Origin: an uncultured archaeon
Lineage (GTDB): Archaea > Aenigmatarchaeota > Aenigmatarchaeia > Aenigmatarchaeales > Aenigmatarchaeaceae
NCBI GenBank assembly: GCA_964348065.1
Contig: CAYGBE010000214.1
Coordinates: forward strand, 66,572-130,571
Direction: 5' to 3'
DNA: 64,000 bases
Of this stretch, positions 1,367 to 60,141 are shown one piece after another (the stretch's first letter is position 1; every line of letters begins with the position of its first letter). The notes beneath the pieces were generated by a model. The model made no database searches, was not told the origin of the DNA, and saw only the letters and a list, made by a program, of their open reading frames with translations. Both the position numbers and the translations under genes were made by a program.

Positions 1367-4159
1367 TTAAGAATAGCTAGGTGTTGCAACTGTTCCTGTA
1401 ACTTCTGTAAAGGATGCCGCTTTTTGAGAGTTTGTAGCTCCTGGGAATCCTGTTTGGACAATTCTAGCTGCCAAATCTGTATCTTGCATTCTTGTACCAG
1501 CAATTACTAATACAGTTTTTCCTGATGCAAATGCGTCAGCAATTAATTGTATTCTTCCAAAGTCTCTTCCTGGCCAACCGGCACAACTATATGGGAATGA
1601 GCCGTCGGAAGCTAATTCTGCTACAAGAGTATTGATACAAGGTCCGCCAACCAATACCATATCATAGTTTGCTTTGTCTGAAGATGTTACTTCGCTGTCA
1701 AGTTTAACAACATCAGATGTAATTGGCAATATTACATCAGTTGTTACTTCGCCTCCAACACCACCACTTGATATTACACCTGTTGGTGTTATAAGATAAA
1801 GGTTTGCATATGTGAATACATCTGGATAACTTATTGTTGCAGAACCTCCGAGTGTTGTACTCAAGTGATCTGTTGTAGTACCGTATGTTGTCATACCCTT
1901 GTACTGTGTATTGGTTCCTAGAATTGCATGGTCTTGATAGTTTGTATCATCTGAGTATAGTGTAATGCCCGCATAAGGTCTTTTTGCTGTATCATCCCAC
2001 AATATTGGAGTGTACAACCAGTTGTGAGTTTGTCCACCTTGGTTTGCTTCTTGGACTAATACGAAACCTGGATTTGTCAATAATCCTGTAACACTTGTTC
2101 CAAGACCAACATTACAAGACGAAGCACCACAGTTCGCAACAATATCCAAGTAATTTGAATCTGAAGTGCCAGTAACATTGTTTATTGTGCTCAAACTAAT
2201 TTGACCGAGACTTGTTGCACCATTGTACAAATAATATGTACCAGTAGTATTTCCTATTATCAATGGTATCATACCGGCTTCCACTGCTACTTTTGCTCCG
2301 TTTGCAGGTGCACTGACTGTTTTATTTCCACTGTAGAAGTACAAACCACCTTGTCCTGTTGTTATTAACTTGGGTACAAGGTAAGAGTACTCATAGCCTG
2401 CTGTATTTGGATAGTAACTTGTATTGCCTGCTATAGCTCCATCACCATTCATATCAACGTTAATTGTTTTCACAGTTGCTGTTGGGTCTACCAAGTAGAC
2501 TTTGAAGGTGTTTCCATCAACTATCAAATCTGCAGTATCTCCTGTACCAAATTGTGTACCTGTTGCTGTTATTGTATTTCCTGCTTCATCTGTAAATGTA
2601 TATGTTTTTGTTGCGTTTGTAAATGCAGTAAATCGTAATACGTGAGAGAAACCTCCTTTGTTTATTACAAAATAATCTTGGTCAACTGCACTTATGTTCA
2701 TGTTTTCATCAAATGCAACATCTCTCCAGTTAGGAGATGTTGTAGGTGCTGAAGCCCATCTCCAGGTTTGTGAAGATGATGTACAGCTATCACAATATAA
2801 TGCAGCAAAGTTGTATTCAGTATCACCAGCGTTCTTATATTTCAAGTACATTGCATATCCAGAAGGTGACATTACTATATTTTGTCTGTTTGCCGCATCA
2901 GTTAAACCTGGAATTACACTGTTGAATTTTATATTAAAGGCACCTGACATTGGATCTGCTATTGATTCTCCCATAACTATCCACTTATTATCTTGTGGTG
3001 TGTGTGTTATGTACAACACTGACCAACCGTTTGCTTCAGATGAAACTATATCAGATCCTAATTGAGTTGCTGTTGTTGATCCTATTGTTACTGTTCCTGT
3101 TGTTGAACCTGAACCACTACCTCTTGTCAACTTAATTTTATCTGCACCAATTGCTATTTTTGCAAAGTCTGCTGCTCCAGTTTTTCCTTGGAAGACTTTT
3201 ATTGCAGCAATTGTTGTTTGTCCATCAGCCATAATTGTTGTTTGTCCTGCTCTTAAGGAGAATGCTTCTCCATTTATGTCTCCTATTGCAGTATAAACTG
3301 TTGTTGAACCTGAGGTTTCAGCAACAACTGATGATAAGGTTATTGTATAATCTAATCCATCAGATGTTATTGTTACTGGTGTTCCAGATTCTACAGTAAC
3401 AACATTTTTACCTCCAAGCAAAGTTATATCTTGAATGTAACCATTTGGAGTTGTACCTCCATGTGTACAATCAGATACAATGAAGTCTTTACCCATTATG
3501 TTTATTGTAGTTCCTTGAAGAACAGCTTGTAGGTTTGCTGTACTTGTTGCACTAGATAATGCAACTGGAGTTGAAAATGTTAATTTGTATGTCCAAAGTG
3601 CTTTAGTTGATGGTACTTTAAATGATAATCTTGGAGTATTTTCTGTTGTTGGTCTATCAAATACTACACTAGCAAAGTTTGTACCTGGATTAGATGTTCC
3701 TAAGTCAGTTTCTCCTAACAAATATATATATTGTTTATAATTGAAGGATCCACCTGTTGTTGATGAGAAGGTGCCTGATCCTAACAAAGATGGTATATCT
3801 GAAGCTGTCATAATTCCTTTTACACGTTGTGGGTTTGCATATGGTTCTAAAAATATACCACTTGTTGCTACTTTTGCTCCGCCTGTAACACTTTCTCCTG
3901 GAATTTCTGTTGTTACAGTTGAAGTTGTTTTAGCGTTTGCTGCCATGTTGACAGCCACGTCAAGAGCACCTGCAACATCTCCTGTTGCTGCACCTGCTCC
4001 AATTACAAATACAGGGAAACTAACTGTTGAATCTGTTACTGTTACCATGTCTGCAATTTTTCCTAATTCCGTTACACTTGTTGCCAATACTGGACCTGTT
4101 AATGCCAATCCTGTCATAAGCGCTGAACCTGCTATTGCAGCTAATTTTTTAAATTGCAT
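1367..4159 (-). CDS. S-layer-type surface (glyco)protein, 930 aa
   Basis: Sec-type signal (MQFKKLAAIAGSALMTGLALTGPVLA). Very T/S/G/N-rich with many N-x-S/T sequons. Cys occurs sparsely, with a group in the C-terminal domain. The motif there (MVLVGGPCINTLVAEL...VLVIAGTRMQDTDLAARIV) resembles the LVGGPxxN motif I recall from methanogen S-layer proteins (from memory). Strong GGAGG Shine-Dalgarno (SD) sequence and a T-run terminator are present. Confidence 0.7.
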   Translation of the reverse strand: MQFKKLAAIAGSALMTGLALTGPVLATSVTELGKIADMVTVTDSTVSFPVFVIGAGAATGDVAGALDVAVNMAANAKTTSTVTTEIPGESVTGGAKVATSGIFLEPYANPQRVKGIMTASDIPSLLGSGTFSSTTGGSFNYKQYIYLLGETDLGTSNPGTNFASVVFDRPTTENTPRLSFKVPSTKALWTYKLTFSTPVALSSATSTANLQAVLQGTTINIMGKDFIVSDCTHGGTTPNGYIQDITLLGGKNVVTVESGTPVTITSDGLDYTITLSSVVAETSGSTTVYTAIGDINGEAFSLRAGQTTIMADGQTTIAAIKVFQGKTGAADFAKIAIGADKIKLTRGSGSGSTTGTVTIGSTTATQLGSDIVSSEANGWSVLYITHTPQDNKWIVMGESIADPMSGAFNIKFNSVIPGLTDAANRQNIVMSPSGYAMYLKYKNAGDTEYNFAALYCDSCTSSSQTWRWASAPTTSPNWRDVAFDENMNISAVDQDYFVINKGGFSHVLRFTAFTNATKTYTFTDEAGNTITATGTQFGTGDTADLIVDGNTFKVYLVDPTATVKTINVDMNGDGAIAGNTSYYPNTAGYEYSYLVPKLITTGQGGLYFYSGNKTVSAPANGAKVAVEAGMIPLIIGNTTGTYYLYNGATSLGQISLSTINNVTGTSDSNYLDIVANCGASSCNVGLGTSVTGLLTNPGFVLVQEANQGGQTHNWLYTPILWDDTAKRPYAGITLYSDDTNYQDHAILGTNTQYKGMTTYGTTTDHLSTTLGGSATISYPDVFTYANLYLITPTGVISSGGVGGEVTTDVILPITSDVVKLDSEVTSSDKANYDMVLVGGPCINTLVAELASDGSFPYSCAGWPGRDFGRIQLIADAFASGKTVLVIAGTRMQDTDLAARIVQTGFPGATNSQKAASFTEVTGTVATPSYS

Positions 4160-9128: not shown

Positions 9129-10391
9129 ATGAAAATCTTTGCAGACTTACATTTACATAGTCATTACAGCAGAGCAACTTCTAATAAAATGAACATAGAA
9201 AATCTGGAAAAATATGCAAAAATTAAGGGTTTAAATCTTTTAGGAACTGGAGACTTTACACATCCTATTTGGTTAGACGAGTTAAAAAGAAGTTTAACAC
9301 AAGTTGAAAACACTGGTTTGTTCCAATTCAAAAACAGGGATATTTTTTTCATGCTTCAAGCAGAAGTTTCAAATATTTACAGACAAGATGAAAAAACAAG
9401 AAAAATTCATAATATTATTCTAGCTCCTAGTTTTGAGATTGTAGACCAAATAAATGATTTTCTTAAAAATTATGGCAGTTTGGGAAGCGATGGAAGACCT
9501 ATGCTAACTAAGATTAATTGTGCAGAAATGACAGAATATTTGATTAACGTTTCTAAACATGTAGTAATAATACCAGCTCATATATGGACTCCTTGGTTTT
9601 CTTTGTTTGGAAGCAAATCTGGTTTTGATTCAATAGAAAATTGTTTTAAAGAACAGACAAAACACATATTTGCTTTAGAAACTGGTCTTTCTAGTGATCC
9701 TGCAATGAATTGGAGACTGTCTTCACTAGATAGATTTACTTTGGTTTCAAATAGTGATAGCCACAGTCCTTGGCCTAACAGATTAGGCAGAGAGTTGAAT
9801 GTTTTTGACACTAAAATGAAATACGAAGAAATAATAAAAACTATAAAAGAAAAGAGTCCTAAAAAATTCCTTTATACTATTGAAGTTGATCCTGCTTATG
9901 GCAAGTATCATTGGGATGGTCATAGAAACTGTAATGTTTGTTTGAGTCCTAAAGAATCAAAAAAATATGAGGATATTTGTCCTGTTTGTGGAAACCCATT
10001 AACCATAGGTGTGGAACATAGAGTCGAAGAACTGGCAGATAGAAATCAAGGGTTTGTTCCAAAAAATTCTATTCCTTTTAAAAATCTACTTCCTTTATCA
10101 GAATTAATAGCAAATGTTTATAATACTCAAGCTTTTTCTAAGAAAGTTTGGAATGAGTCCACAAAACTAATAAAAGAATTTGAGTCTGAATTAAATGTTT
10201 TATTAGATGCTAACAAAGAAAAACTAAGGCTCTTAGTTAATGAAAAACTTGTTGATTTAATAATAAAAAATAGAGAAAACAAGATAAAGGTCCAACCTGG
10301 GTATGACGGGGTTTATGGAAAGTTAATATTAGAGGGTGATGCTTCTATTAAACAACCTCAAAAAAGAATTGACAGTTATATTAAAAAATAA
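9129..10391 (+). CDS. endonuclease Q (PHP-domain, deaminated-base endonuclease) homolog
   Basis: N-terminal PHP motif ADLHLHSHYSRATS, then PAHIWTPWFS and SNSDSHSPWPNRLGRE. Zn-finger GKYHWDGHRNC...CPVCG. Length and motif order match Pyrococcus EndoQ as I recall it. Confidence 0.8.
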   Translation: MKIFADLHLHSHYSRATSNKMNIENLEKYAKIKGLNLLGTGDFTHPIWLDELKRSLTQVENTGLFQFKNRDIFFMLQAEVSNIYRQDEKTRKIHNIILAPSFEIVDQINDFLKNYGSLGSDGRPMLTKINCAEMTEYLINVSKHVVIIPAHIWTPWFSLFGSKSGFDSIENCFKEQTKHIFALETGLSSDPAMNWRLSSLDRFTLVSNSDSHSPWPNRLGRELNVFDTKMKYEEIIKTIKEKSPKKFLYTIEVDPAYGKYHWDGHRNCNVCLSPKESKKYEDICPVCGNPLTIGVEHRVEELADRNQGFVPKNSIPFKNLLPLSELIANVYNTQAFSKKVWNESTKLIKEFESELNVLLDANKEKLRLLVNEKLVDLIIKNRENKIKVQPGYDGVYGKLILEGDASIKQPQKRIDSYIKK

Positions 10392-10441: not shown

Positions 10442-11392
10442 TTACCTACCTGTGACCACAACGCTAGCTGTCCTTTCAGTAAAGTATCCATAGTCTGCTG
10501 TTACTGTAATTGGGAAACTTTGGAATGTTGCTGGTGGTGTTATTGTAATGTCACATGATAATGTTATGTCTTTTCCTCCAATCAGTTCTTGAACTCCTGT
10601 ACATTCATTAGACAAGTCTGTGCCAGCTAAATTAACACCAATGTCAACTCTGTTTATTTGATCTGTTGTTAAATTAAGGTTATCTGGGTTAGTTGTACTA
10701 TAATCAATTGTATCATCTGAATATAGTACACCGCCACCTGCATTACCAACCTTTACTATTAGTGTAAATGAATTTTCAGTGTCGTACAAAACTACTGGGT
10801 CTTGAGTCACATATGCCATTACAGATACTGGGCCTGCTGATGCGCTCCAAGTTGCTTTGTTTAATGTTGTACCAGCTGCTTTTGCTGCATCCCACTCAGC
10901 TTGTGAATAAACCCAAATATTTCCTGTAACTTTTGTCTGATAGTCATAATAAACTCTTCCTATGAAGAGATAATTGTTTTGTTCACCTTTTGAAATATTT
11001 GGTGCTGTTAGAGACCACGTAATCATTTTTTCGGTTGCTGGAACATCTCCAACTATATCAGCTGGTTTCATTTCTGTATTAAATTTCCTTATCAAGGTAT
11101 CGCCTGTAGTCCAGAATATTGTGTCGTCGCCAGCAGGTTCCAAGGCTGAACCTGTTAAGTATACTAATGATTCAGCATCTGGAACTGAGTGACCTCCTTT
11201 GTTGGTGACTGTTACCATTATCCTGTTTGTTTGTCCTCCGTAAACTGCTGTCTGATCTGAAGAAAAGTCTGTCATAACTAGTCCTGTACCTCCAAGGAAT
11301 GTAATTGGTTGTTGAAATATATTTGTTATTGGACCTGCGCAACCTGCTATAAAAAGTGTAGCCAGCGTAGCTAACAAAATCTCTTTTTTCAT
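10442..11392 (-). CDS. secreted lipobox protein, double beta-sandwich module (cluster paralog F)
   Basis: Signal plus lipobox (LFIAGC). Homologous along its whole length to 11593-12672: VTNKGGHSVPDAESLVYLTGS vs VENKGGTNVPDGDAVVYLTGS; FIGRVYYDYQT..GNIWVYS vs FIARVYHEYET..GNVWIYS; TTDQINRVD vs TTEQINRVD. Has its own TATA (CTATATATATAC) and an AGGTGA SD. Confidence 0.6.
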   Translation of the reverse strand: MKKEILLATLATLFIAGCAGPITNIFQQPITFLGGTGLVMTDFSSDQTAVYGGQTNRIMVTVTNKGGHSVPDAESLVYLTGSALEPAGDDTIFWTTGDTLIRKFNTEMKPADIVGDVPATEKMITWSLTAPNISKGEQNNYLFIGRVYYDYQTKVTGNIWVYSQAEWDAAKAAGTTLNKATWSASAGPVSVMAYVTQDPVVLYDTENSFTLIVKVGNAGGGVLYSDDTIDYSTTNPDNLNLTTDQINRVDIGVNLAGTDLSNECTGVQELIGGKDITLSCDITITPPATFQSFPITVTADYGYFTERTASVVVTGR

Positions 11393-11592
11393 TTAAAAAT
11401 CACCTTTTATTTCTTATCATAAAATTGTAAGCCGTATATATATAGATTTAGGTTTATGGAGAAATATATTGTTTACACTACGAAAAATTTACAATTTAGA
11501 AAGGATATTATCTAAATAATGATGATTCTATTAACTATTATAAAAAATAGAAAAAACTAGAACTGAAAAAAGGAAATCAATGGGTTAGTTGA

Positions 11593-12672
11593 TTAAGCAC
11601 AGCCTCCGGCACCATCACAAGTTTCTGGATCAGTACAATCATCTTTAGGATCTTCTCCCTCTGCTACATATTCACAGTCACCAGCAACACATTCTTCACA
11701 TGCTGGACAATCATCATCTGTAGTACATTCTGCTGCTGTTTCTCTTCCCTGAAGTGTTACAATAGTTGTTCTTTCAGTATAATATCCATAAGACACTGAC
11801 ACGCCTAAATCATAGGAAGCTAGACTTGGTATACTACCGGGTATTGTTACCTCGCAAACCAAAGTTGTATCTTTTCCTGCTATTAATTCTTGGGCACCTT
11901 CACAACCACTTCCAACTTCAAGTGTACCAGCGCCAACCTCTACATCAACCCTGTTTATTTGTTCTGTTGTTAATGAAACACTTCTACTTTCTCCAGTATA
12001 CGTTAAAATGTCTGGAGCATAAATTGTTCCTGCTCCAAGATTTGATAGTTTTACATACAATGTAAATGAGCTATCAGTACCATATATGATAACAGGGTCA
12101 GGAGACACGGAAACTTCAATACCTACTGGACCTCTTGTATAAGTAAAAGATGGTCTATACAATGCTCTTCCAGCAGTTCTTGCTGCTTCTGCTTCAGTTT
12201 CAGAATAAATCCAAACATTACCATTTGCAGTTGTCTCATATTCATGATAAACTCTTGCTATGAATGTGTCTTGTCTTGTTTGACCTGGAGTAAGAGCTGG
12301 TGCTTCTAATGACTTAGTAAATCTTTTGGAATCTGCTGGAATTTGTCTTACAACATCTGTTGCTTTCATATCTTGCTCAAAGTCCAAGTATTCAAATGAT
12401 CCTGCACCACTCCAACCAGCATAGTTTGAACCTGTTAAATAAACTACAGCATCTCCATCTGGAACATTAGTTCCTCCTTTGTTCTCAACATCCAACATGA
12501 GTCTGACTGAAGAACCACTAAATGCGGAAGATGGTTCTATTGAAAAACTGGTTATCTCTAGACCATTAGCTCCGCCTAATAACGGTGCTCCTCCGAAACC
12601 TGGTATTTCAATGCCTGCACAAGCTGCAACTAAAACCATTGCTAAAATTGAAATTAATATTTTAATTTTCAT
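11593..12672 (-). CDS. secreted lipobox protein, double beta-sandwich module plus Cys/acidic C-terminal tail (paralog E)
   Basis: Signal plus lipobox (VLVAAC). Same module as paralog F. Carries an extra 49-aa tail: ETAAECTTDDDCPACEECVAGDCEYVAEGEDPKDDCTDPETCDGAGGCA. Confidence 0.6.
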   Translation of the reverse strand: MKIKILISILAMVLVAACAGIEIPGFGGAPLLGGANGLEITSFSIEPSSAFSGSSVRLMLDVENKGGTNVPDGDAVVYLTGSNYAGWSGAGSFEYLDFEQDMKATDVVRQIPADSKRFTKSLEAPALTPGQTRQDTFIARVYHEYETTANGNVWIYSETEAEAARTAGRALYRPSFTYTRGPVGIEVSVSPDPVIIYGTDSSFTLYVKLSNLGAGTIYAPDILTYTGESRSVSLTTEQINRVDVEVGAGTLEVGSGCEGAQELIAGKDTTLVCEVTIPGSIPSLASYDLGVSVSYGYYTERTTIVTLQGRETAAECTTDDDCPACEECVAGDCEYVAEGEDPKDDCTDPETCDGAGGCA

Positions 12673-12777
12673 GATTTCACTGATATAAAATTGTTAAGTA
12701 CGTATTTATAATTGTTGGTCAAATTACCACTGGTGTTGGCCTAGACCTGGTCCTGAAGAAGAAGTTGATCTTTCAAC

Positions 12778-13656
12778 TTAACCGCCTGCTATTATTGATA
12801 TGGGTATAGTATTGTAAATTTTGTATGTGTAATCAATATCCATGCTAAAGGGTTGAACGTCCATCACAGCTGGTGATGAAGTATCAAAAGTACATATAGA
12901 TGAAACTGATCTTCCTTTTATGAATTTTAAATAATTACTCCAAGGCTGTCTTAAACTCCCTGATTCATAATCTTCACAACTTAAAGATAACATATTGCTT
13001 GGAACTGTTAAACCAATAACTATGTTCTCAAAAAAACCGTTTCCTCTATTATGATAATTAATATCCATACCATATCCTGATAGATCTGCTAAAAATGGTT
13101 GTGGTTCAGAAAATGTTAGAAAAATATTTAACGGGCCTTGGGGAGAACTAGATGTAATGGAAATTCCTCCAAGTGTTCCTTCTATTTCTCTTCGTTCGTA
13201 TTCAGCTGCTGATAAAACTGCTATATCTTGGTGCAATGTGTTGTGAGCAGCATAAGACACAACGAATTTTATTTGACACAGTTTATCTATATCTGATCCT
13301 TTTGCTGTCCATCTCCAAGTCCATGTACAACTTTCATTTGGTTTTAATATTGTGTCTTTACAATCACGGGGAGTAGCCATTTTAAAATTTCCACTGTCTT
13401 CAATACAAGGATGGTCATAAACATCAAAATTAATACCTGTTAAATCATAAGATTGTTTGTTTCTTAATTCAAAAAATACTTTAAAATCTCTTCCTCCTCT
13501 AATTTGTGAACTAAGTGCTTCTACTTTTACAAAAATATCTGGATTTGACAAATCACTAATAACAGTTTCTAATTGTTGAGAAACAAATGGGATATTAGGT
13601 AGAGATGAACATAAGGAAATTAAAACTATAGGTAGTAAAAGTAGCAAATATTTCAT
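12778..13656 (-). CDS. secreted protein, divergent member of the same module family (paralog C)
   Basis: Signal with Cys (VLISLCSS). Shares landmark order with paralogs D/E/F: FFELRNKQ..., VVSYAAHN..DIAVLSAAEYE, GPLNIFL, NRGNG, SSICTF, MDIDYTYKIY. Confidence 0.5.
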   Translation of the reverse strand: MKYLLLLLPIVLISLCSSLPNIPFVSQQLETVISDLSNPDIFVKVEALSSQIRGGRDFKVFFELRNKQSYDLTGINFDVYDHPCIEDSGNFKMATPRDCKDTILKPNESCTWTWRWTAKGSDIDKLCQIKFVVSYAAHNTLHQDIAVLSAAEYERREIEGTLGGISITSSSPQGPLNIFLTFSEPQPFLADLSGYGMDINYHNRGNGFFENIVIGLTVPSNMLSLSCEDYESGSLRQPWSNYLKFIKGRSVSSICTFDTSSPAVMDVQPFSMDIDYTYKIYNTIPISIIAGG

Positions 13657-13684
13657 AAAAATTATTAGATTTTGGTAAATAAAT

Positions 13685-14629
13685 CTATGGTACTATTTTA
13701 ACGTTAACTTCTCCTGTTGAATAATAATCATAATCAATTGATGCTGTTATAAAATACGTTCTCTCAGGAATACCTTCAGGTAAGCTACGTGTTTTAATAC
13801 CAATACATCTTACTTCAAGTGATTTTTTATTTATTATAGGAATATCATCATTATTTCTGAAGGTACTTGAATCGCCTACGCGTGAAAAATATGGACATCT
13901 TGCACTACTCAAATCAAACTCAGAAGGAAATGTTATTGTAAATGTTTCGCTCAAAATTTCACTTAATAAGCCAGTTCCTTTGTTTTCAACTGTCACATAA
14001 ACTGGCAAAGGATAACCAGTATCTTTTACAGGCAAACTTGTTCCAAAATCAAAATAAATTTTTAGAGGCCCTCTTCCAACGTTTATAGTAGGTTTAAAGG
14101 ATCGTGCTGTTCCTGCTCTTTGCAATTCTTCTAAATGAGCTTCACTAATTACAAGAACATCAATTTCAGTTGTTGCGTTATAAGGAAAATCAAATTTAAA
14201 TCTTATAGGACAGGTTAAACTTATAGCTGCAATTTCCTCTGCTGAAGGAGCTTTAAAAGTCCATATAACTAATCTTGTTTCTTGGGGGAAAAAATCACCA
14301 CCTGGAAAAACTGCAGATGTTCCGATGGTATAAGCCCCTGTTATGGGGGGTTCTCCTTCTATAGGATCACACAAACCAGTGTCATAAAGATTATAATCTA
14401 CAGGAACCTTTATGAATTCATCTTGATTTAAAAGTTCAAAAAAAACTGAAAACTCATCATTTACACGAACAGTTGTTGAAGGTAAAACAGTTACATTAGT
14501 TATTGAAATTACATCAGATGGTAATTCAACAACCGTGGGTCCTTGACTAGCAAATATATTAAGAAATGGTATTCTTGAACAACCTGAAACTAATAAAATT
14601 AATATTAAACTTAAAAACAGTTTTTTCAT
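13685..14629 (-). CDS. secreted lipobox protein, same module family (paralog D)
   Basis: Signal plus lipobox (LLVSGC). Landmarks: FFELLNQDEF, FDFPYNATTEIDVLVISEAHLEELQRAGT, GRGPLKIYF, VENKGTGLL, LEVRCIGI, ASIDYDYYSTGEVNVKI. Confidence 0.55.
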   Translation of the reverse strand: MKKLFLSLILILLVSGCSRIPFLNIFASQGPTVVELPSDVISITNVTVLPSTTVRVNDEFSVFFELLNQDEFIKVPVDYNLYDTGLCDPIEGEPPITGAYTIGTSAVFPGGDFFPQETRLVIWTFKAPSAEEIAAISLTCPIRFKFDFPYNATTEIDVLVISEAHLEELQRAGTARSFKPTINVGRGPLKIYFDFGTSLPVKDTGYPLPVYVTVENKGTGLLSEILSETFTITFPSEFDLSSARCPYFSRVGDSSTFRNNDDIPIINKKSLEVRCIGIKTRSLPEGIPERTYFITASIDYDYYSTGEVNVKIVP

Positions 14630-14667
14630 GTTATCATTTTAATATTCTATTTTTAAACTTAAAGGTT

Positions 14668-17427
14668 TTATTGTGGAGGTGCATTTGCAACTTGTAAAAT
14701 TTGTGTTGATGTTTTTACATAAGTATAATCTGCTAACCCTATAATTAAATTGGTTTGTCTTTCAATAACTGAAGATACGTCTCTCGGTTCTATGAAAAAT
14801 GAAATTCTTTTAAATTCACGGTTTTCCACCAAAGTTTCACTATGTTCACACACTATAGCATTATAAGTTTTTCCATCAATACTTCGAGAACCAATAGCAC
14901 CACAACCAGGATCAAAACTTGTACGTATAGTAGTTGGTGTTCCCAATTCTATTGGAACAAGAACTGTAAAAGTTACATCCTCTATATTACCGGTGCCCTC
15001 ATTTAAAATTGATGCAATAACAATAGAAGGCTCAGTGTCTCTTATTGGTTGTCTTGGTATATACAATGTTGCTTTAACAGGACCTCCAGTATATCTTGAA
15101 TATAATTCATGCAACACAACTTGTCTATTTTCAAGCAAGGTTATGTAAGTCGGAGTATCTATGACTTCAATTGGTAAAGACACATTAACTTTGTAATCAT
15201 AAGTTGTATTGACTCTTACTCTGATCATATGACCCGAATAATCATATAGTATTGCTGTTATGTTACCATATTCATCGTACACATATTCTTCAGTTCTTAA
15301 GTCAACTCCACTATTTACCCATCCATAGTCTTCATATATAAATGTAGATAGTTTGACTTCGTTTGGGTAAATAGTACCGTCCCATTCGCATGTAGCCACA
15401 TGATCTGATTCGATCGCATCAGATCTACCACTACATGTCATTCTGGCAAAATCACCAATTAGTACTTCCTCTCCCAAAGTTACTGGATCTTGCCAACTTG
15501 TCCAAACTTCCAACTCCAAATAATCTGATTCAAATTCACCTTGATTAGTAAGTTCTATTGTGCCTGTCATAGGTTCAGTTGGTTCTAAAACTCCGGGTAA
15601 TGATGGGAACAACTCAAATCTAGTTAACTCTATAGATAGAGGTGAGCCTCCTTCATCAACAATACTTGCTCCTGCTTGTTGTTGTTGTAACTGTATTAGA
15701 TAATATTGTTGGGGATTTGTTATTAATAGCCAAACATCTCCTAATCCAAATTGGGCTTGCGACCAAGCAGTACTCAATGGAGCTAGATAAGTTTCACCAA
15801 AAGACAGAACATAGGGCCACCAGTATCCAAAAACTGCTTGACCCACATAACCTGTATAAATGCTTGAAAATGTAAACATTGCAATGAAAATCATTAAAAC
15901 TCCTATACCTGGTCTTCCTTCTGGACCTGTTGACAAACCAGTAACAAACGAGAGGAACCAAACTGCAACAAACATCATTTGAGACATAGTCCATGTCCAA
16001 GCAGTTCCTGTCATTGTAAAGAAAAGGGATGCAATCATTAAAACTATAAACAAAGCATATCCAATTGGACTGTCTTGTAACTTGCTGATTTTACCTATTT
16101 CCACTGTGATCCTACCTGCTTCTTGTGCTGATTTTGATCTTGGAAAATTAACAAAAAATGCTGCAGCCATGAGCGCCAAAGCTAAATTAACATTATTAAA
16201 CAAGCCACCTGCTCTAAAAACAAACCAGAATAAAAATGCTATATATGCACCGAGTAACATTTTGGCCCATGCTTCTATAATCTTATAAGGTTGGCTGACT
16301 CTATAGGCTGATGGCATTGGCAAGTAAAATATGAAAGCAAGTATCAAAGTTAATACCATATTAATCATAGAAAATTGTAAAAGTATAAAAGCAAAAGCAA
16401 ATATTTTTGCACCTGCTTTTGGGAATAACAAAGCAGCCTTTCCACTGTCAAAAGGTTGATCAGGGCCAATAGACCTAAGAACATCACGCTCTCCAGGAAG
16501 CAAAATATAAGCTGGAACAAATGCCATTAAAGCAATTGCCAAATAATTAAATGCTATTGGAAAACCTAAATATTGAGGGATGAATAAGGATAGTATTCCA
16601 GCTATTTCAACCATGAAAACTGTATAAATTTTATAACCAACTTTTTTCCCAGTTACATATCTTAATTTTTTCGTTGCTATTCTTTGTTCTTGAATATATG
16701 TTTCTTCTTGATAAGGATTAGGTAAACCACATCCATCAGGTGGATTTGGACAATGTTTTAATTCATAATCATAAACTGTTCCACAACGTTCACAAATAAC
16801 AGGATGTCGACCAGTTCCTTTTACAAAAGTTCTTTTAATAGCGCCAGGAGCCTTTTTTATCGATCTTTTAGTACCACCAGCCATAGCAGGAACAGCTTTT
16901 TCAGCGGTTTCTAGAGAACGTTGCATAAAATTTGTAAGAGATGTGGGAATACCTCCTTTAATAGAACTTGGTACAAATTTAGGTGCTCCTTTATGAACAA
17001 CTTTTTTATAAGCTTCTTTTAGACTATGAGTTTTCCTCCAATGATTTTCATAATCTTTCATGGATTGAAATGTTTTAGTACAATCAGGACATTTAACATA
17101 TGGTCTTAGTTCTGTAATTTTTTTATGTTTATCAAAATACTTTTCTGTAACGCTTATAGATTTACTAATAGCATCATCAAGTGGGTATCCGATATCTCTA
17201 TATCTGTTTATAAGTCTTACGATGTTTGCAGAGACTTCATTACCACTTGCGGCATCTTTTCTAATTTCATTGTAAATCACTGTAGCATGTTCCATTCGCA
17301 TTTTAATTTCATCTTTACGTTGTTTTTCTTTGGTTTTAGCTTCTCTTTTAGTTCTTCCCTTTCTTTTCAATGTTTCCCCTGATAAAAAATCTGCTAGTCC
17401 ACCTACAAACCTTTCCATTATACCCAT
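14668..17427 (-). CDS. 919-aa polytopic membrane protein: cytoplasmic C2H2 finger plus zinc ribbon, ~9-10 TM helices, C-terminal ectodomain with the cluster's beta-sandwich module
   Basis: No signal peptide. Basic N-terminus with CPDCTKTFQSMKDYENHWRKTH (C-x2-C-x12-H-x4-H) and CERCG...HCPNPPDGCG. Hydrophobic core spans roughly aa 270-560. Ectodomain landmarks: ELTNQGEFES, TTYDYKVNVSLPIEVI, GGPVKATLYI, ILNEGTGNI, NAIVCEH, GLADYTYVKTSTQI. Confidence 0.6.
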   Translation of the reverse strand: MGIMERFVGGLADFLSGETLKRKGRTKREAKTKEKQRKDEIKMRMEHATVIYNEIRKDAASGNEVSANIVRLINRYRDIGYPLDDAISKSISVTEKYFDKHKKITELRPYVKCPDCTKTFQSMKDYENHWRKTHSLKEAYKKVVHKGAPKFVPSSIKGGIPTSLTNFMQRSLETAEKAVPAMAGGTKRSIKKAPGAIKRTFVKGTGRHPVICERCGTVYDYELKHCPNPPDGCGLPNPYQEETYIQEQRIATKKLRYVTGKKVGYKIYTVFMVEIAGILSLFIPQYLGFPIAFNYLAIALMAFVPAYILLPGERDVLRSIGPDQPFDSGKAALLFPKAGAKIFAFAFILLQFSMINMVLTLILAFIFYLPMPSAYRVSQPYKIIEAWAKMLLGAYIAFLFWFVFRAGGLFNNVNLALALMAAAFFVNFPRSKSAQEAGRITVEIGKISKLQDSPIGYALFIVLMIASLFFTMTGTAWTWTMSQMMFVAVWFLSFVTGLSTGPEGRPGIGVLMIFIAMFTFSSIYTGYVGQAVFGYWWPYVLSFGETYLAPLSTAWSQAQFGLGDVWLLITNPQQYYLIQLQQQQAGASIVDEGGSPLSIELTRFELFPSLPGVLEPTEPMTGTIELTNQGEFESDYLELEVWTSWQDPVTLGEEVLIGDFARMTCSGRSDAIESDHVATCEWDGTIYPNEVKLSTFIYEDYGWVNSGVDLRTEEYVYDEYGNITAILYDYSGHMIRVRVNTTYDYKVNVSLPIEVIDTPTYITLLENRQVVLHELYSRYTGGPVKATLYIPRQPIRDTEPSIVIASILNEGTGNIEDVTFTVLVPIELGTPTTIRTSFDPGCGAIGSRSIDGKTYNAIVCEHSETLVENREFKRISFFIEPRDVSSVIERQTNLIIGLADYTYVKTSTQILQVANAPPQ

Positions 17428-17481
17428 TAAAACAACCTCTATTTTCTATAAACTAAATGTGAAAATCGATATATTAAATTA

Positions 17482-18267
17482 TCATCCAAAGAACAGAATT
17501 ATCTCAGCAGAAGAAACTTCATACCTTGTGTTGGGTTCTGTAGAAAATTTAATTGTATTGTTCCCAGCTTTAAGAGTATTGGTAGAAAAGTCTGTGTAAA
17601 TAGTTGTTACACCACTATAAATCTTAACATCGTTTACCATAACATCAAGCTTACCAGGTCCCTCTCTATCAGCATAAACAATGATTCTTGCCCTATTCAA
17701 GTAATTTTTTTCTTTATCAGTTAAATCAAAAGTAAAACTTTTAGCTCTTTCACCAGTATAATCAACAACCACATCTAAATCAAAAATATAAACAGTTGGA
17801 GCCCATAATCTCCATCCAGAACTTTCTGCACCTATTTCTAATATATTATTTCTTTCTAGAATACTATTATCAAAACCAATTAGTATTTCTCCAACAGGAG
17901 GATGATCTCTATAAACCTCCTTTTCATTAATTAAAATCACTAATTTACCATAATAGTTTGCATTCCAAACTTTAAGTTTTAAAAATGAATCAAAAACCTC
18001 TTCAATATCAGAAACTTGAAAACCTATTCTTTTCTCATCTACAGCAAAAATACCATTAGAAACTTCTCCACCAACATGGCTTGCTGTTTCTTCACCAGTT
18101 GTATAAAAAACATTAAAACTATGGAACTCTATTGTTCTGTCAGCAGGCAAACCAATACGAGTAGTTGTGCTAGAAGGACCAAAAATAAAGCCACCTCCTC
18201 CAAAAACTAGCAAAAGTCCGATTAAACAAATGATTCCTATTACCAAAATGGGAAGGAAGTCTGGCAT
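17482..18267 (-). CDS. single-pass membrane protein with an internally duplicated extracellular domain (first gene of the cluster)
   Basis: N-terminal TM (LPILVIGIICLIGLLLVF). Two similar halves: GKLVILINEKEVY...ERNNILEIGAES and GKLDVMVNDVKIY...KAGNNTIKFSTE. Confidence 0.5.
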   Translation of the reverse strand: MPDFLPILVIGIICLIGLLLVFGGGGFIFGPSSTTTRIGLPADRTIEFHSFNVFYTTGEETASHVGGEVSNGIFAVDEKRIGFQVSDIEEVFDSFLKLKVWNANYYGKLVILINEKEVYRDHPPVGEILIGFDNSILERNNILEIGAESSGWRLWAPTVYIFDLDVVVDYTGERAKSFTFDLTDKEKNYLNRARIIVYADREGPGKLDVMVNDVKIYSGVTTIYTDFSTNTLKAGNNTIKFSTEPNTRYEVSSAEIILFFG

Positions 18268-18304
18268 AGTTGATATTTAAACCCATAAGAATAAAAATAT
18301 TCTC

Positions 18305-19321
18305 ATGCGCTCAAGATTTGATTTAAAGCACGATATAGCAAAAATAACACCAAATTCAAAAGAGGACTTATTCATATTAAAAGAAGTCATAACTCCTGGA
18401 TGTTTTGTTACTGCAAAGTCTCCTAGAAGTATTAAAATAAGAAGAGAAGGAGAGCTGATAAGAGCAAAAAAGGGAAGAAAAGAAGTAATAATGAAAATTG
18501 AAGTTGAGAAAATTGAGTTAAAAGATAATTTAAGACTAACTGGAAAGATTTTAGAAGCTCCTGAAAAAGTGGAAAGAGGATATCACACAATAGAAGTTGA
18601 GCCCAACAAGTTTTTGAGAATAGAAAAAGAATGGAAGTCCTGGGAAGTTGATAGAGTCAAATCTGCCGAAAGAAAACCAGAACCAGTTTTAATATGTATT
18701 TTAGATGAAGATGAAGCTGATTTTTATTTTTTGAAAACAAGATATAAACATCTATTTAATTTAACTTCTAAAGCAAGTGGAAAAAGGTTTGATGCTAAAA
18801 AAGCTGAAAAACAAATAAAGGAATATTATGATAAAATATTGAATGAATTGAAAAAAAGGTCTAAAACAGTCAAAAAAATTGTGATTGCTGGTCCTGGATT
18901 TGCAAGAGAGAACTTACAAAATTTGATTAAACAAAGGGAAAAGGATTTGTTAGATAAATTAATGATGGAATTCACGTATCAAACAGGAAATTTGGGTTTA
19001 CAAGAACTGTTGAAAAAAGGTTTAATAGAAAAAATAACTAAGTACAGTAGAATTTCTCAAGAAACAAAAGCTGTTGAAAAATTGTTAGAAGCAATTAATA
19101 AAAATAGAAAAGCTGTTTATGGTTTGGAAAAAACCAAAGAAGCCTTAGAAAACGGTTTAATTGATTTTCTTTTAGTTTCTGATATTAAGATTAGAGAATT
19201 TGAAGAATTGTTAGATTTATCAGACAAAATGAAATGTAAAATAATGATTATTAATTCTGAACATGCTGCTGGAGAAAAACTAATTGGATTGGGTGGAATA
19301 GCAGGATTACTAAAATATTAA
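18305..19321 (+). CDS. pelA: protein pelota (Dom34 homolog, no-go/non-stop mRNA surveillance)
   Basis: 338 aa. The N-terminal Sm-like domain pattern (KITPNSKEDLFILKEVITPGCFV...), eRF1-like central and C-terminal domains, and overall length fit archaeal pelota. Confidence 0.8.
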   Translation: MRSRFDLKHDIAKITPNSKEDLFILKEVITPGCFVTAKSPRSIKIRREGELIRAKKGRKEVIMKIEVEKIELKDNLRLTGKILEAPEKVERGYHTIEVEPNKFLRIEKEWKSWEVDRVKSAERKPEPVLICILDEDEADFYFLKTRYKHLFNLTSKASGKRFDAKKAEKQIKEYYDKILNELKKRSKTVKKIVIAGPGFARENLQNLIKQREKDLLDKLMMEFTYQTGNLGLQELLKKGLIEKITKYSRISQETKAVEKLLEAINKNRKAVYGLEKTKEALENGLIDFLLVSDIKIREFEELLDLSDKMKCKIMIINSEHAAGEKLIGLGGIAGLLKY

Positions 19322-19331
19322 AGGATAAGGA

Positions 19332-19700
19332 TTATTTTTTACGTCCTCTTCCACTGCCGCCACATCTTCCGTATTGCGTACAATCTCCTGGATTTGACCA
19401 TGAACATGTGTACCAACTTTTAGTGCATATCAATGTGTCTCCTGAACATGAAGAATAATAACCGCTTGGACATGAATACGATGTTGTTACATTCGCATAG
19501 CTTATACAATGTAGAGAACCCTCTGGATAACAATTAGCAAACCATGTGTCACCAGGACATGTGTATGTTCTTGTATCTTCACACTTCCACCTATAACCAG
19601 TATATTGACCCGCAGAGCTTAAACCAAAGGAATACCAAAGAGCAACTACAATCACTATTATTACTAAAACGATTATAGCATACAAAATTGTTTTGTTCAT
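19332..19700 (-). CDS. small secreted Cys-rich protein (14 Cys in ~90 aa)
   Basis: N-terminal anchor MNKTILYAIIVLVIIVIVVALWY, shared with 22175-23140. Mature part is rich in C/Y/W/S/T/G and ends GGSGRGRKK. Confidence 0.5.
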   Translation of the reverse strand: MNKTILYAIIVLVIIVIVVALWYSFGLSSAGQYTGYRWKCEDTRTYTCPGDTWFANCYPEGSLHCISYANVTTSYSCPSGYYSSCSGDTLICTKSWYTCSWSNPGDCTQYGRCGGSGRGRKK

Positions 19701-23179: not shown

Positions 23180-23294
23180 TGGGCGAGGAGAGATTTGAAC
23201 TCTCGACCACTAGTTTCTACAGAACGTAGCCACAAAAAATGACTAAGCGTCATTTTATAAGACTAGCGCTCTAACCAGACTGAGCTACCCGCCC
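23180..23294 (-). tRNA. tRNA-Ile (anticodon UAU) with a 40-nt intron at 37/38
   Basis: Reverse complement: GGGCGGG-TA-GCTC..GAGC-G-CTAGT-CTTATA[40-nt intron]A-ACTAG-TGGTC-GAGAG-TTCAAAT-CTCTC-CTCGCCC-A. Total 115 nt, 75 nt mature. Confidence 0.8.
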
Positions 23295-28005: not shown

Positions 28006-28455
28006 ATGAAAGGAATATCAACAATATTGGCAATGATTTTGATTGTTATTATAGTTGTGGCATTGATAGGTCTAACTTATACCTTCGCAGTTGGATTGTT
28101 CGGCACAGCAACAGGTGGTGCTACTGAACAAACAGCAACTGTTACAGAAAGATTACAAAAAAGTGGTACTATTGTTTCATCATCTTGTGATAAGAATATA
28201 GTATCTGAACAAAGAAACTTTACAGTAACAATTAAAAACACGGGAACATTACCAATAAAGGCTAATGAAATCGCATTTTTCCAAGATGACGTAAGAGTAA
28301 CTGATTTTGATAAACCACTTACAGATCTTCTAGCAGGTGCACTTGAAACATATGAACTTGTAAACTCTACAGAAGCTGATGATGCAAGTCATATAATAAA
28401 ACTTTCAGTACCAGCAGGTGAAGTTACCTATTCATCAACTTGTTCATCATCTTAA
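28006..28455 (+). CDS. archaeal type IV pilin (class III signal peptide)
   Basis: MKG/ISTILAMILIVIIVVALIGLTYTF N-terminus (prepilin-peptidase site after G, hydrophobic helix). GGAGGT SD. Small beta-rich C-domain. Confidence 0.75.
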   Translation: MKGISTILAMILIVIIVVALIGLTYTFAVGLFGTATGGATEQTATVTERLQKSGTIVSSSCDKNIVSEQRNFTVTIKNTGTLPIKANEIAFFQDDVRVTDFDKPLTDLLAGALETYELVNSTEADDASHIIKLSVPAGEVTYSSTCSSS

Positions 28456-28497
28456 TAAAGAACATTTATATATAGTAGCTACAGCCAAACTATAGTT

Positions 28498-29028
28498 ATG
28501 CCAGAAGAAGATGTAAGTTATGAAATAATACCAGTAACACCTATCAAAAAGCTGCAGGAAAGAATAGAAAGAATAGAATCAACAGGAACCTCGCCACAAT
28601 TGCAGAATTTGATAAATCAGATAATAGAATTAATAAAAAATAATCAGAAAATTGTAAATGATGTTATTCAGGCAAATGTAGAGCTAAAAAATGAACTTTC
28701 TAGATTGCCTTCAAAGATTGATGATCTGTTAGCTACTATAAATAATTTTATTTCTTTAGTAGAGGCTGCTGCAAGCGAAGAAGTAGCACCAGCTACACAG
28801 CCTCAAGTTCAACAACCTAGTCCTGATGTTTTTAAGCCAATAATTGAGGAATTAAAGAAAATTTCTGATCAGAACAAAAATCTCGTGGAAAGCAACAAAA
28901 CTGTTCTTGAAGAATTAAAGAAAGCAGATAGGAGAGCTAAAGCCAGAGGAACACCAGTCTCAGCATTATTATCTACTTATCCCCTAAGAAGGGATTTGAA
29001 AAAAGACATAAGAAAAGTTGAGCAGTAA
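28498..29028 (+). CDS. hypothetical coiled-coil protein embedded in the pilin array
   Basis: 176 aa with no TM or signal and heptad-like Q/N/E/L-rich helices. The stop overlaps the next pilin start (TAATG). Confidence 0.45.
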   Translation: MPEEDVSYEIIPVTPIKKLQERIERIESTGTSPQLQNLINQIIELIKNNQKIVNDVIQANVELKNELSRLPSKIDDLLATINNFISLVEAAASEEVAPATQPQVQQPSPDVFKPIIEELKKISDQNKNLVESNKTVLEELKKADRRAKARGTPVSALLSTYPLRRDLKKDIRKVEQ

Positions 29029-29462
29029 TGAAAGGTGTAAGTGCAATAATTGCAATAATTCTAATATTAATGATAGTTGTGGCTTTGGCTGCTCTAACAT
29101 ACACTTGGTTTACTGGAATATTTGGAAGCTTAACTACAAGCGCTTCTAATGCAACAACAACAGCCACAACAGCACTAGGAATGAAATTTGAAATAGAAAG
29201 GGCAAAATTTTATGATACACCATATAATCATGTTAATGCTACTATCAGAAACAAAGGAACTCTAGATATTGACCCAAGCAAATTTGGAATTTATATTGAT
29301 GGTAGCCTTTCTCCTGAATATACTTATCCCTATAGCAAAATATCTCCAGCAGATAGCATAGATATATTAATTAATAACACAACCTCAGCAGCATGTTCAA
29401 ACAAAGTATTAAAAATAACTATTGAAACTGGTCTTGAAGACTATAGAACAATTACTTGTTGA
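29028..29462 (+). CDS. archaeal type IV pilin (class III signal peptide)
   Basis: MKG/VSAIIAIILILMIVVALAALTYTWF. Stop is TGA immediately followed by TAG. Confidence 0.75.
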   Translation: MKGVSAIIAIILILMIVVALAALTYTWFTGIFGSLTTSASNATTTATTALGMKFEIERAKFYDTPYNHVNATIRNKGTLDIDPSKFGIYIDGSLSPEYTYPYSKISPADSIDILINNTTSAACSNKVLKITIETGLEDYRTITC

Positions 29463-29467
29463 TAGAA

Positions 29468-29902
29468 GTGAAAGGTGTAAGTGCAATAATTGCAATAATT
29501 CTAATAATAATGATAGTTGTGGCTTTGGCTGCTCTAGCTTATCCATGGATTGTTGAGATGTTTGGTATTTTAGTTGGAACTACAAAAAGCTCAACAGATA
29601 CCTCAACCAATGTTATGGGAACTGAATTTAAAATAGAAGTAGCAAAAAATATTACAGGTCTTAGTAATTGTTGTAATGTATCTGTTACTATAAAAAATAT
29701 AGGAACGAGCATAATAGGCCTGACAAAAATAGCTGCTTACGTAGATTATGAGAAACAAACCATATACAATCAAATAAATTTAGGAAATTTGGCTTCTGAT
29801 AATGTAGTAACATTTAATATTTCTGCAAATGAAGATCCAAAAGGCAAAAAATTAAAAATAGTGACTAATATTGGCATAGAAAAAACAACGACAATTACTT
29901 AA
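29468..29902 (+). CDS. archaeal type IV pilin (class III signal; GTG start preferred over track ATG 29456)
   Basis: From GTG 29468 the first 70 nt are 67/70 identical to the start of the preceding pilin gene, giving (M)KG/VSAIIAIILIIMIVVALAALAYPW. The ATG at 29456 would add an atypical MLIE prefix. Confidence 0.7.
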   Translation: MKGVSAIIAIILIIMIVVALAALAYPWIVEMFGILVGTTKSSTDTSTNVMGTEFKIEVAKNITGLSNCCNVSVTIKNIGTSIIGLTKIAAYVDYEKQTIYNQINLGNLASDNVVTFNISANEDPKGKKLKIVTNIGIEKTTTIT

Positions 29903-29925
29903 TAAAATAAAAACAATTAAGTATC

Positions 29926-30438
29926 ATGAAAGGACAATCAGAAATATTGGTTTTTGTTCTTCTTTTTTTATTAAGCGTTGGACTATTTACAGTAGCTGTC
30001 TTTTGGGGCAAAGATATTTTTCAGCAAAATGTTGATATAACAAAAGTTTCTGCAGCAGAAGAGTTTATGAAAGAAATTGATTATGCTATTCAAAGTTTAA
30101 TAAAATTTGGTGGGTATTGGGAAGAAGATTATAAAGTAGATGGGCCAATAACATTAGTTGATAGTAAAACTATTGAAGTTAGAACAGTTATTCCTTCTGG
30201 AATGCCAATACCAGATTATTGGGTTAATATATCTTCTGATTCCTCTTATTATATAAGAGAAATGCTGGATGGAGATGTTCTTAGAGTTCAATTGGTTTAT
30301 CCTGAAAATGAATATAAAGTTGAGTTTTTTACTGAAGGTCCAACCTTAGCAAAACCAAAAAAAGTTAGAATCGAAAAAAATTCTACAACTATTGAAAACA
30401 ATAAAGGAACAATCAAAATAAGAGTAACCTTTATATAA
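29926..30438 (+). CDS. pilin-like protein (class III signal)
   Basis: MKG/QSEILVFVLLFLLSVGLFTVAVFW N-terminus. Confidence 0.6.
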   Translation: MKGQSEILVFVLLFLLSVGLFTVAVFWGKDIFQQNVDITKVSAAEEFMKEIDYAIQSLIKFGGYWEEDYKVDGPITLVDSKTIEVRTVIPSGMPIPDYWVNISSDSSYYIREMLDGDVLRVQLVYPENEYKVEFFTEGPTLAKPKKVRIEKNSTTIENNKGTIKIRVTFI

Positions 30439-30446
30439 TATTTTTT

Positions 30447-32680: not shown

Positions 32681-32688
32681 ATGATTTC

Positions 32689-33570: not shown

Positions 33571-33574
33571 TAAA

Positions 33575-35547: not shown

Positions 35548-35548
35548 A

Positions 35549-60031: not shown

Positions 60032-60141
60032 TGCCCTCGACGGGATTTGAACCCGCGACTTCCTGATTTCTTCATCTTGTTTCAGAACTTCTAAGTCCGA
60101 CTTAGAAGTCAGGCGCTCTATCCAAACTGAGCTACGAGGGC
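60032..60141 (-). tRNA. tRNA-Arg (anticodon UCU) with a 35-nt intron at 37/38
   Basis: Reverse complement: GCCCTCG-TA-GCTC..GAGC-G-CCTGA-CTTCTA[35-nt intron]A-TCAGG-AAGTC-GCGGG-TTCAAAT-CCCGT-CGAGGGC-A. The intron segment GACTTAGAAGT is complementary to the anticodon loop/stem. Confidence 0.85.

Follow-up and report, generated by a model that had tools for sequence, protein, structure and literature searches.

The systems described so far that come closest to the locus reported here are the immunoglobulin-like (Ig-like) surface domains of the CARDB/DUF11 type, the archaeal lipobox lipoproteins with their AliA-AliB pathway, the AglB/STT3 enzymes and the minor-pilin sets of type IV pili. The ways in which DPANN archaea construct their envelopes and attach to partner cells are poorly understood, and we know of no cultured member of the Aenigmarchaeota. 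In this study, we analyzed six neighbouring genes, A to F, which span positions 10442-18267 on the minus strand of a 64-kb stretch of DNA from an uncultured archaeon (contig CAYGBE010000214.1, positions 66,572 to 130,571; hereafter the window). An earlier note, made from the sequence of this DNA, had proposed an undescribed surface apparatus in a DPANN-like organism, and the homologs indeed bear Aenigmarchaeota labels from metagenome-assembled genomes (MAGs). By profile homology, the external domain of the polytopic protein B recurs as diverged tandem copies in proteins C, D, E and F, and A is, as judged from its sequence, a co-conserved single-pass protein with two lectin- or carbohydrate-binding module (CBM)-like repeats. 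We tentatively favour the reading, placed somewhat short of an even chance, that A-F form a lineage-specific Aenigmarchaeota envelope complex made from B and its lipid-anchored paralogs, the assembly and function of which we infer.

Like the CARDB/DUF11 surface domains, proteins E and F are secreted, surface-located and built as Ig-like sandwiches, and their CARDB match lies over the N-terminal half of the first sandwich. In contrast to those domains, the unit found in A-F is a fixed two-domain module with an acidic linking helix, a Cys pair and terminal Y-x-Y hairpins, and it occurs once per protein and is linked to a polytopic partner in which the module is also found. Scores of 20.2 bits for E and 18.0 bits for F against CARDB (PF07705) fall below the gathering cut-off of 22.7, and Pfam gave no CARDB match in B, C or D; 26 of 71 E/F-family members matched weakly (E<=0.01), and one relative (P0058) has a precomputed PF07705 match. 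For the CARDB-like strand seen earlier by eye, this is a sub-threshold likeness in E and F that falls short of a Pfam assignment. 'Predicted S-layer proteins with Ig-like domain' have also been described in an arCOG01314-linked predicted secretion system with MoxR and vWA proteins (Makarova et al. 2015, PMC5898192). This system was rejected as a candidate, as the MoxR-type ATPase, the vWA protein and the arCOG01314 membrane protein are absent in and beside the cluster.

Lipobox lipoproteins and AliA have been reported to be prevalent in DPANN (PMC12462473). Proteins C, E and F share the canonical box and invariant Cys of this pathway, and AliA_AliB genes stand beside distant B genes; however, the box of D ends in -SLC, AliA is absent from the window, and the pathway explains anchoring but not the role of the cluster. 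The resemblance of B to AglB/STT3 and other GT-C enzymes lies in a polytopic N-terminal part, an external beta-rich C-terminal part and a WW motif after the last transmembrane (TM) helix, whereas AglB/STT3 has 13 TM helices and an acidic external-loop motif and B has 9 and none, and adds a cytoplasmic zinc-finger extension. By analogy, the minor-pilin sets of type IV pili are likewise diverged single-copy paralogs in fixed order beside a membrane component, but A-F lack class III signal peptides, an ATPase and a PilC-type platform.

None of A-F reached a curated cut-off in Pfam or NCBIfam, PADLOC and PHROGs gave no match, and no relatives were found on viral contigs in IMG/VR. Sequence-profile searches of the PDB returned nothing for A or for E/F and, for B (104 sequences), spurious matches to TM proteins at E>=0.0015. 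Several candidates were rejected on these grounds: a type IV pilus or archaellum (no T2SSE, T2SSF or class III signal peptides in the cluster), an archaeosortase/PGF-CTERM system (no Exosortase_EpsH match, no broadly conserved Cys or His in the B core, no hydrophobic tail on C-F), an S-layer protein (no match of A-F to S_layer_N or S_layer_C, PF05123/PF05124), AglB/STT3 itself (PF02516; no Pfam or PDB profile match, short external loops and the motif FGYWWP in B), anti-phage defence and a provirus or phage module (no PADLOC, PHROGs or IMG/VR matches), and an ABC transporter. We found no description of this cluster in the literature searched. The cluster thus lies outside every known kind of system tested, as had been supposed from the sequence; 'new' here means unassigned, the fold of the module itself being a common Ig-like one.

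The six genes of the cluster, as given by the open reading frame (ORF) listing, are as follows.

17482-18267, minus strand: gene A, 261 aa, single-pass protein
14668-17427, minus strand: gene B, 919 aa
13685-14629, minus strand: gene C, 314 aa, lipobox LLVSGC, carries the module
12778-13656, minus strand: gene D, 292 aa, signal peptide with the non-canonical Cys box LISLC, carries the module
11593-12672, minus strand: gene E, 359 aa, lipobox LVAAC, carries the module
10442-11392, minus strand: gene F, 316 aa, lipobox FIAGC, closest paralog E (40% identity)

These coordinates and the A-B, B-C, C-D, D-E and E-F spacers (54, 38, 28, 105 and 200 nt) are identical to those read before. The G+C content of A-F (0.32-0.35) is near that of the window (~0.30), and composition therefore gives no pointer to foreign DNA.

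The evidence for a shared module comes from profile comparison. Single-sequence BLAST within the cluster paired E with F (40% identity, 3e-78), C with D (25%, 3e-14) and C with F (8e-6), and gave no match between B and the other cluster proteins. Family alignments of 13-19 orthologs per gene, drawn from related loci, were then compared profile against profile (hhalign). The B ectodomain matched C at 98.8% (E 1e-16, 248 columns) and D at ~95.5% (E 1e-8), C matched D at 99.8% (E 2e-29), C or D matched E or F at 96-98% (E 4e-9 to 6e-13), and E matched F at 100% (E 9e-104). Because similar signal peptides could inflate such scores, the comparison was redone on the mature parts, which gave 98.8% for B ectodomain and C, 99.5% for C and D, 96.3% for D and F, and 97.8% (E 1e-12, 253 columns) for merged C and D against merged E and F. 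Distant B proteins also match the hidden Markov model (HMM) of the C family directly, to E 6e-12, and A proved unrelated to the module in profile-profile comparison. The highest similarities are found between neighbouring genes, along a chain from the B ectodomain through C and D to E/F, a gradient expected for the stepwise duplication of an interacting module; the cluster would thus be a natural case of a complex apparently built from one module in this way.

In the joint alignment, the N-x-G, Y-x-Y, GP[VL], second N-x-G-x-G, Cys and terminal Y-x-Y positions line up in all five proteins and the acidic helix is present in C-F only, in agreement with the ordered landmarks first picked out by eye. 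An AlphaFold2 model of E (71 sequences; predicted local distance difference test score (pLDDT) 85.5) contains one beta-sandwich at residues 38-157, the acidic helix at 158-167 and another beta-sandwich at 175-308. The model and the profile homology across the five copies together bear out the double beta-sandwich module proposed in the earlier note. Compared with each other as a check for an older duplication, domains 1 and 2 of the module scored 74% for C and 4% for E. Foldseek searches of the E model against PDB and BFVD returned the MG domain of alpha-2-macroglobulin, Ig-like domains of transglutaminase and integrin, RbmA, the soluble domain of STT3, DUF11, FnIII and clumping factor, all with a TM-score of ~0.2 and a root-mean-square deviation >14 Å over full-length alignments; for a predicted model, this is a generic signature of tandem Ig-like domains that is uninformative on function.

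Each of C-F has a signal peptide that ends at a Cys, and this Cys is invariant across the orthologs of all four families, as the four signal-peptide proteins recognized beforehand would lead one to expect. The sequences of C (VSGC), E (VAAC) and F (IAGC) fit the lipobox [LVI][ASTVI][GAS]C, whereas that of D (ISLC) deviates at -1 and retains the Cys; a distant ortholog of D (in locus L019, see below) has the canonical VSGC. The C-termini of C-F carry no hydrophobic tail. From these features C-F are presumably lipid-anchored through the Cys. In a 254-aa ORF elsewhere in the window (40068-40832, minus strand), the first 21 residues match the F-family HMM over its signal peptide and lipobox (E 7e-4); the ORF probably encodes a further lipobox protein with no relation to the module.

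Protein B is divided into the following regions.

16648-17427, minus strand: cytoplasmic N-terminal region, aa 1-260, with an amphipathic-looking MGIxxR start and predicted long helices, variable among orthologs
17026-17094, minus strand: C2H2 finger Cx2Cx12Hx4H, aa 112-134, weak match to Pfam zf-C2H2 (E 0.017)
16723-16794, minus strand: zinc ribbon CxxC...CP, aa 212-235, with C212, C215 and C226 conserved and a weak Pfam Zn-ribbon match
15661-16647, minus strand: polytopic core, aa 261-589, 9 predicted TM helices, N-in, C-out
14668-15660, minus strand: ectodomain, aa 590-919, a two-domain module as in C-F without the acidic helix

The nine TM segments fall within aa 265-525 by hydropathy, and the loops carry 17 Lys and Arg residues on the predicted inside versus 1 on the predicted outside. 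This charge bias places the N-terminus of B inside and its C-terminal domain of ~330 aa outside, and, together with the finger and the ribbon, it sustains the earlier description of a cytoplasmic zinc region, about nine TM helices and an ectodomain. The N-terminal region aligns poorly across orthologs, and other members of the B family match Pfam zf-C2H2 (E 3e-14), Zn_Ribbon_1 and DZR. An AlphaFold2 model of B from a 4-sequence alignment (pLDDT 44) had beta-strand content in the ectodomain and was excluded from the fold search. Some B orthologs (P0003) have Cys-rich insertions in the ectodomain.

No Pfam family was matched by the TM core in the 45 other members scanned. Among 104 family members, its signature residues are Y368, FF424-425, P429, R505-P506, G509, FG533-534 and W537-P538 (FGYWWP), and the broadly conserved positions are aromatic, Gly and Pro residues plus R505/P506 and a K/R at 389; no acidic, His or Cys residue in the core is invariant and no Ser is broadly conserved. 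The conserved polar motifs SQPYK..EAW and GPEGRP map to loops predicted to be cytoplasmic. Since no acidic, His or Cys residue of the core is invariant and the conserved polar motifs lie on loops predicted to be cytoplasmic, the sequence favours scaffolding or docking over catalysis on the outside.

These data bear directly on the idea that B is a very diverged GT-C glycosyltransferase (AglB- or YfhO-like), with C-F as its substrates or accessory subunits. The architecture of B and the invariant FGYWWP just after TM9, which recalls the WWDYG motif of STT3/AglB, speak for it, as does the STT3/AglB soluble domain among the generic Foldseek matches of E. However, neither B nor the 45 other members has a Pfam match to STT3, PMT or YfhO, the 104-sequence profile found no AglB, PglB or STT3 in the PDB at E<=10, TM helices number 9 and not 13, the external loops are 2-6 residues long and hold no conserved acidic residue, and the Foldseek TM-score is only ~0.2. 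We consider such an enzyme extremely improbable and close to refuted.

Relatives of the cluster were sought in metagenomic sequence collections. With the E/F family, a word-indexed search gave 74 matches, all from metagenomes or MAGs, the named ones being Aenigmarchaeota; with B it gave 4 matches, and a 7-sequence B alignment used as the query returned the same 4. An exhaustive HMMER search of 1.84 billion representatives found 329 B-family clusters at E<=1e-3, of which 126 reached E<=1e-30, and the named members come from Aenigmarchaeota or 'Nanoarchaeota' MAGs. A total of 25 loci were fetched and their ORFs classified using the window proteins (relative loci are labelled L0xx and relative proteins P0xxx, and coordinates after an L label are those within that locus). 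The full A-B-C-D-E-F order was found in nine distinct loci, and the others are colinear up to the contig edges at which they end, so the neighbourhood is kept outside this genome, as the proposal in the earlier note called for. In all, about a dozen Aenigmarchaeota MAG loci maintain this gene order, and across the lineage each gene of the set is retained as a single copy in its place. Wherever a locus extends far enough, the C ortholog immediately follows B. As a phylum-level candidate for DPANN envelope biology the cluster deserves attention, yet it is one among many conserved dark-matter clusters.

Identity of the related loci to A-F of the window is 30-67%, versus 56-86% for pelota and 66-85% for the EndoQ-like gene that flank the cluster; A-F thus evolve faster than their housekeeping flanks, yet retain one-to-one orthology. 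Spacers in the related loci are short, with a frequent 4-nt overlap at C-D or D-E that suggests co-translation, and the E-F spacer is always the longest. Among the more distant loci, L019 (27-32% identity) contains A and B, a pair of C-like genes and one gene each of the D-like and E/F-like kinds, all paralogs with SGC lipoboxes; in L023 (25-43% identity), A and B are accompanied by three lipobox paralogs, and an insertion of toxin-antitoxin type interrupts the cluster; and in L021 the A-B pair persists. Because the flanks are syntenic as well, order conservation in close relatives partly reflects lineage relatedness and not selective pressure on A-F, and L019, L021 and L023 provide the stronger evidence. 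Small toxin-antitoxin-type genes stand beside or inside the cluster in two loci and leave the gene order undisturbed, a DUF2683/ParE gene between pelota and A (L006:4119-4630) and an NTP_transf_2 gene between paralogs (L023:14274-15434).

An alternative is that there is no complex and that tandem duplication of the B ectodomain gave rise to C-F as separate surface lipoproteins (adhesins or binding proteins), which stand beside B only by lineage-wide synteny. The synteny of the flanks, the faster evolution of A-F relative to their housekeeping neighbours, the promoter-like and Shine-Dalgarno-like signals of F itself, a gene absent in L014, and the purely generic Ig-like adhesin-type folds matched by E/F (clumping factor, DUF11, RbmA) are all in its favour. 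Adhesin families, however, usually vary in copy number, whereas the four paralogs stay strictly one-to-one in the same order down to ~30% identity (L019, L023), with no lineage-specific expansion or loss except that of F in L014, and the 4-nt gene overlaps also oppose independence. We regard this alternative as somewhat unlikely; if A-F were no more than unrelated surface proteins, what would be left is the naming of three protein families as new, namely the A family, the B core and the module of two sandwiches.

The envelope complex that we favour is suggested by the module homology, the two-sandwich fold, the invariant lipobox Cys, the fixed one-to-one order, the topology of B and an S-layer gene ~6 kb away. 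In such a complex, C-F would be anchored by lipidation of the Cys through the archaeal AliA-type pathway, on Gly/Pro-rich tethers of 15-20 residues, and would associate with the homologous ectodomain of B to give a hetero-oligomer of five related modules. The hetero-oligomer would sit between the membrane and the S-layer (S_layer_C gene at 1367-4159), A would be an accessory partner, and the cytoplasmic loops and zinc-binding N-terminus of B would form the cytoplasmic docking side. Its role would be structural or adhesive, as an envelope scaffold or a cell-cell contact site; with no acidic, His or Cys residue broadly conserved in the TM core, a catalytic role is improbable. A membrane anchor with four lipid-anchored copies of its outer domain, in single copies and fixed order, makes a concrete candidate surface structure.

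Several observations weigh against this reading. The faster evolution of the cluster proteins than of pelota fits independent surface proteins equally well, and the flanks (pelota, EndoQ-like and bPH genes) are also syntenic in close relatives. The complete set is not obligatory, since F is missing in L014 and C-F are missing beside B in L021, L022, L024 and L025. An AliA gene was found neither in the window nor in the 10-kb flanks of close relatives. The charge bias around the TM helix of A is weak or ambiguous as to orientation.

A protein of 930 aa with an S_layer_C match (PF05124, E 2e-17) is encoded at 1367-4159 of the window (minus strand), ~6 kb from the cluster, and occupies the same relative position in L006 and L008; it is likely to be the S-layer protein.

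A second B subfamily (B2) comprises P0187, P0189, P0194, P0211, P0212 and P0215, proteins of 1150-1350 aa in which both the TM core and the module are present and which are 22-26% identical to B of the window. Two of them end in hydrolase-type domains, an SLT transglycosylase domain in P0212 (L021:10001-14008; E 3e-19) and a glucosaminidase domain in P0215 (L022:10001-14044; E 2e-14). From these fusions in two distant B members we infer an extracellular site of action for the C-terminus of B, which in some lineages would be a murein-type wall. To our knowledge, these archaea make no such wall themselves. A role in host contact is attractive owing to the hydrolase fusions, the two distant proteins being its source. 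Carried further, the idea becomes that of a trans-envelope apparatus, in which B, its cytoplasmic zinc-finger domain being a possible route of coupling across the envelope as the earlier note supposed, would nucleate a hetero-oligomer with the four paralogs and the lectin-like A at a site of host contact or penetration, and the hydrolase-fused B proteins would be versions armed against a walled host; this we regard as rather unlikely.

The B2 loci are also those in which AliA genes appear. In the P0212 locus, pelota, A and B stand together without C-F, and an AliA_AliB gene lies 3.5 kb downstream. In the loci of P0215, P0194 and P0211 (L022, L024 and L025), the order is ThrRS-ADK-B, with B tail-to-tail or nearly so with AliA_AliB and then T2SSF/T2SSE pilus-like genes. 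The AliA_AliB genes (PF01889), each convergent with the B2 gene, are located as follows.

L021:17553-18407
L022:14921-15793
L024:13540-14391
L025:13915-14754

Since the three ThrRS-ADK loci share synteny and count as one observation, the link with AliA rests on two arrangements, which hint at a functional connection of the B family with lipoproteins. The lipobox proteins and, in the sister subfamily, the AliA gene connect the cluster to the newly opened field of archaeal lipoproteins.

Such a tie could be read as B being a lipoprotein-handling factor (maturation, sorting or retention) with C-F as its clients. Four lipobox proteins directly follow B, B2 is tail-to-tail with AliA_AliB in L022, L024 and L025 and 3.5 kb from it in L021, and no archaeal homolog of the bacterial lipoprotein signal peptidase is known. 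However, members of the B family are restricted to Aenigmarchaeota-type MAGs, unlike the widespread lipoproteins and AliA, no Asp, Glu, His, Ser or Cys is broadly conserved in the TM core, the L022, L024 and L025 loci reduce to one observation through their ThrRS-ADK-B-AliA-pilus synteny, and AliA is absent from the window and from the 10-kb flanks of close relatives. This function of B appears quite unlikely.

Protein A has one hydrophobic segment (aa 1-33) and a conserved start, MPDFxPVL...FGGG. Its two ~100-aa beta-rich repeats are homologous (internal hhalign 96.7%, E 3e-10), and distant orthologs have three. Orthologs of A (14-16) always stand directly upstream of B, and 6 of 14 members match the CBM-like PF14683 below the cut-off, with a best E of 5e-5. 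Of the earlier description of A, the single pass and the internal duplication are upheld; given the weak or ambiguous charge bias, the repeats are at most a putative ectodomain.

In five loci an extra gene, X, predicted to encode a cytoplasmic protein of 376-813 aa, lies between A and B.

L005:1519-2856
L007:2973-4223
L008:4049-5179
L010:7288-9729
L018:8358-9602

Four of the five X proteins (not that of L007) start with MG[IL]x[DN]R[IF][KR], like the B N-termini MGIMERF and MGIIDRIK, a type of start that may resemble the membrane-binding N-terminal helix of PspA/Vipp1. The motif AEE[VS][GC]H is common to X of L005, L007, L008 and L010. No Pfam family was found in X or in the distant downstream proteins.

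Gene X and the zinc region are relevant to a further possibility, that B is a membrane-tethered sensor or regulator in which the module and C-F, as co-receptors, sense an envelope or host signal and the zinc region binds nucleic acid or a partner. A zinc finger and zinc ribbon are present in the cytoplasmic N-terminus across the B family, the most strongly conserved polar residues of the core map to predicted cytoplasmic loops, and X, present in the five loci, shares the MGIFDRIK-type N-terminus in four of them. A tethered regulator, however, would not need nine TM helices, and the N-terminal region is the least conserved part of B, being short or missing in some orthologs (L006, L007). We therefore hold a sensor to be very unlikely and retain the envelope complex as the preferred reading.

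The intergenic regions of interest are listed below, as read directly from the sequence.

18268-18304: 37-nt divergent spacer between A and pelota, with a pair of AT-rich TATA-like boxes that lie ~27 nt from their respective ATGs
12673-12777, minus strand: D-E spacer, with a TATA-like box TTATAAATA ~35 nt upstream of the E start
11393-11592, minus strand: E-F spacer, with T-tracts after E, then TATA-like TATATATATA and AAGGTGA (GGTG, Shine-Dalgarno-like) before F

The last two gaps had been said to carry their own signals, and a TATA-like box was read in both D-E and E-F, with the Shine-Dalgarno-like GGTG before F. A promoter role of the A/pelota, D-E and E-F boxes and a terminator role of the E-F T-tracts are plausible from sequence. 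The distance of ~27 nt between the TATA-like boxes and the ATGs suggests that the A and pelota transcripts are probably leaderless and divergent.

The public gene call for E (P0005, 301 aa) begins at Met59 and so omits the first strands together with the signal peptide and lipobox Cys. As all orthologs retain the longer N-terminus, the deposited E annotation is probably truncated. At its other end, E has a Cys-rich, acidic tail of 50 aa (10 Cys, residues 310-359) that is disordered in the model and absent from most orthologs. A 122-aa Cys-rich protein with one TM helix adjoins pelota (19332-19700 of the window, minus strand); this protein, the E tail and the insertions in B may be small disulfide or metal-binding modules.

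The pelota gene (18305-19321) flanks the A side of the cluster in divergent orientation, and an EndoQ-like PHP gene (9129-10391), the orthologs of which carry PF27218 MJ0043_C, flanks the F side in convergent orientation. In L006 the EndoQ-like gene (12037-14397, minus strand) encodes 786 aa with a LAGLIDADG_3 domain, a probable intein insertion.

Further along the window, a type IV pilus-like locus on the plus strand (28006-37398) contains a T2SSE ATPase (30860-32680), two T2SSF genes (32689-34516), a vWA protein (34516-35547), two unannotated ORFs and several small proteins, one of them with a weak Arch_flagellin and a sub-threshold CARDB match. Rfam gave long tRNA matches (110-115 nt) at 23180-23294 and 60032-60141, both on the minus strand and unreported by ARAGORN, which are probably intron-containing tRNA genes.

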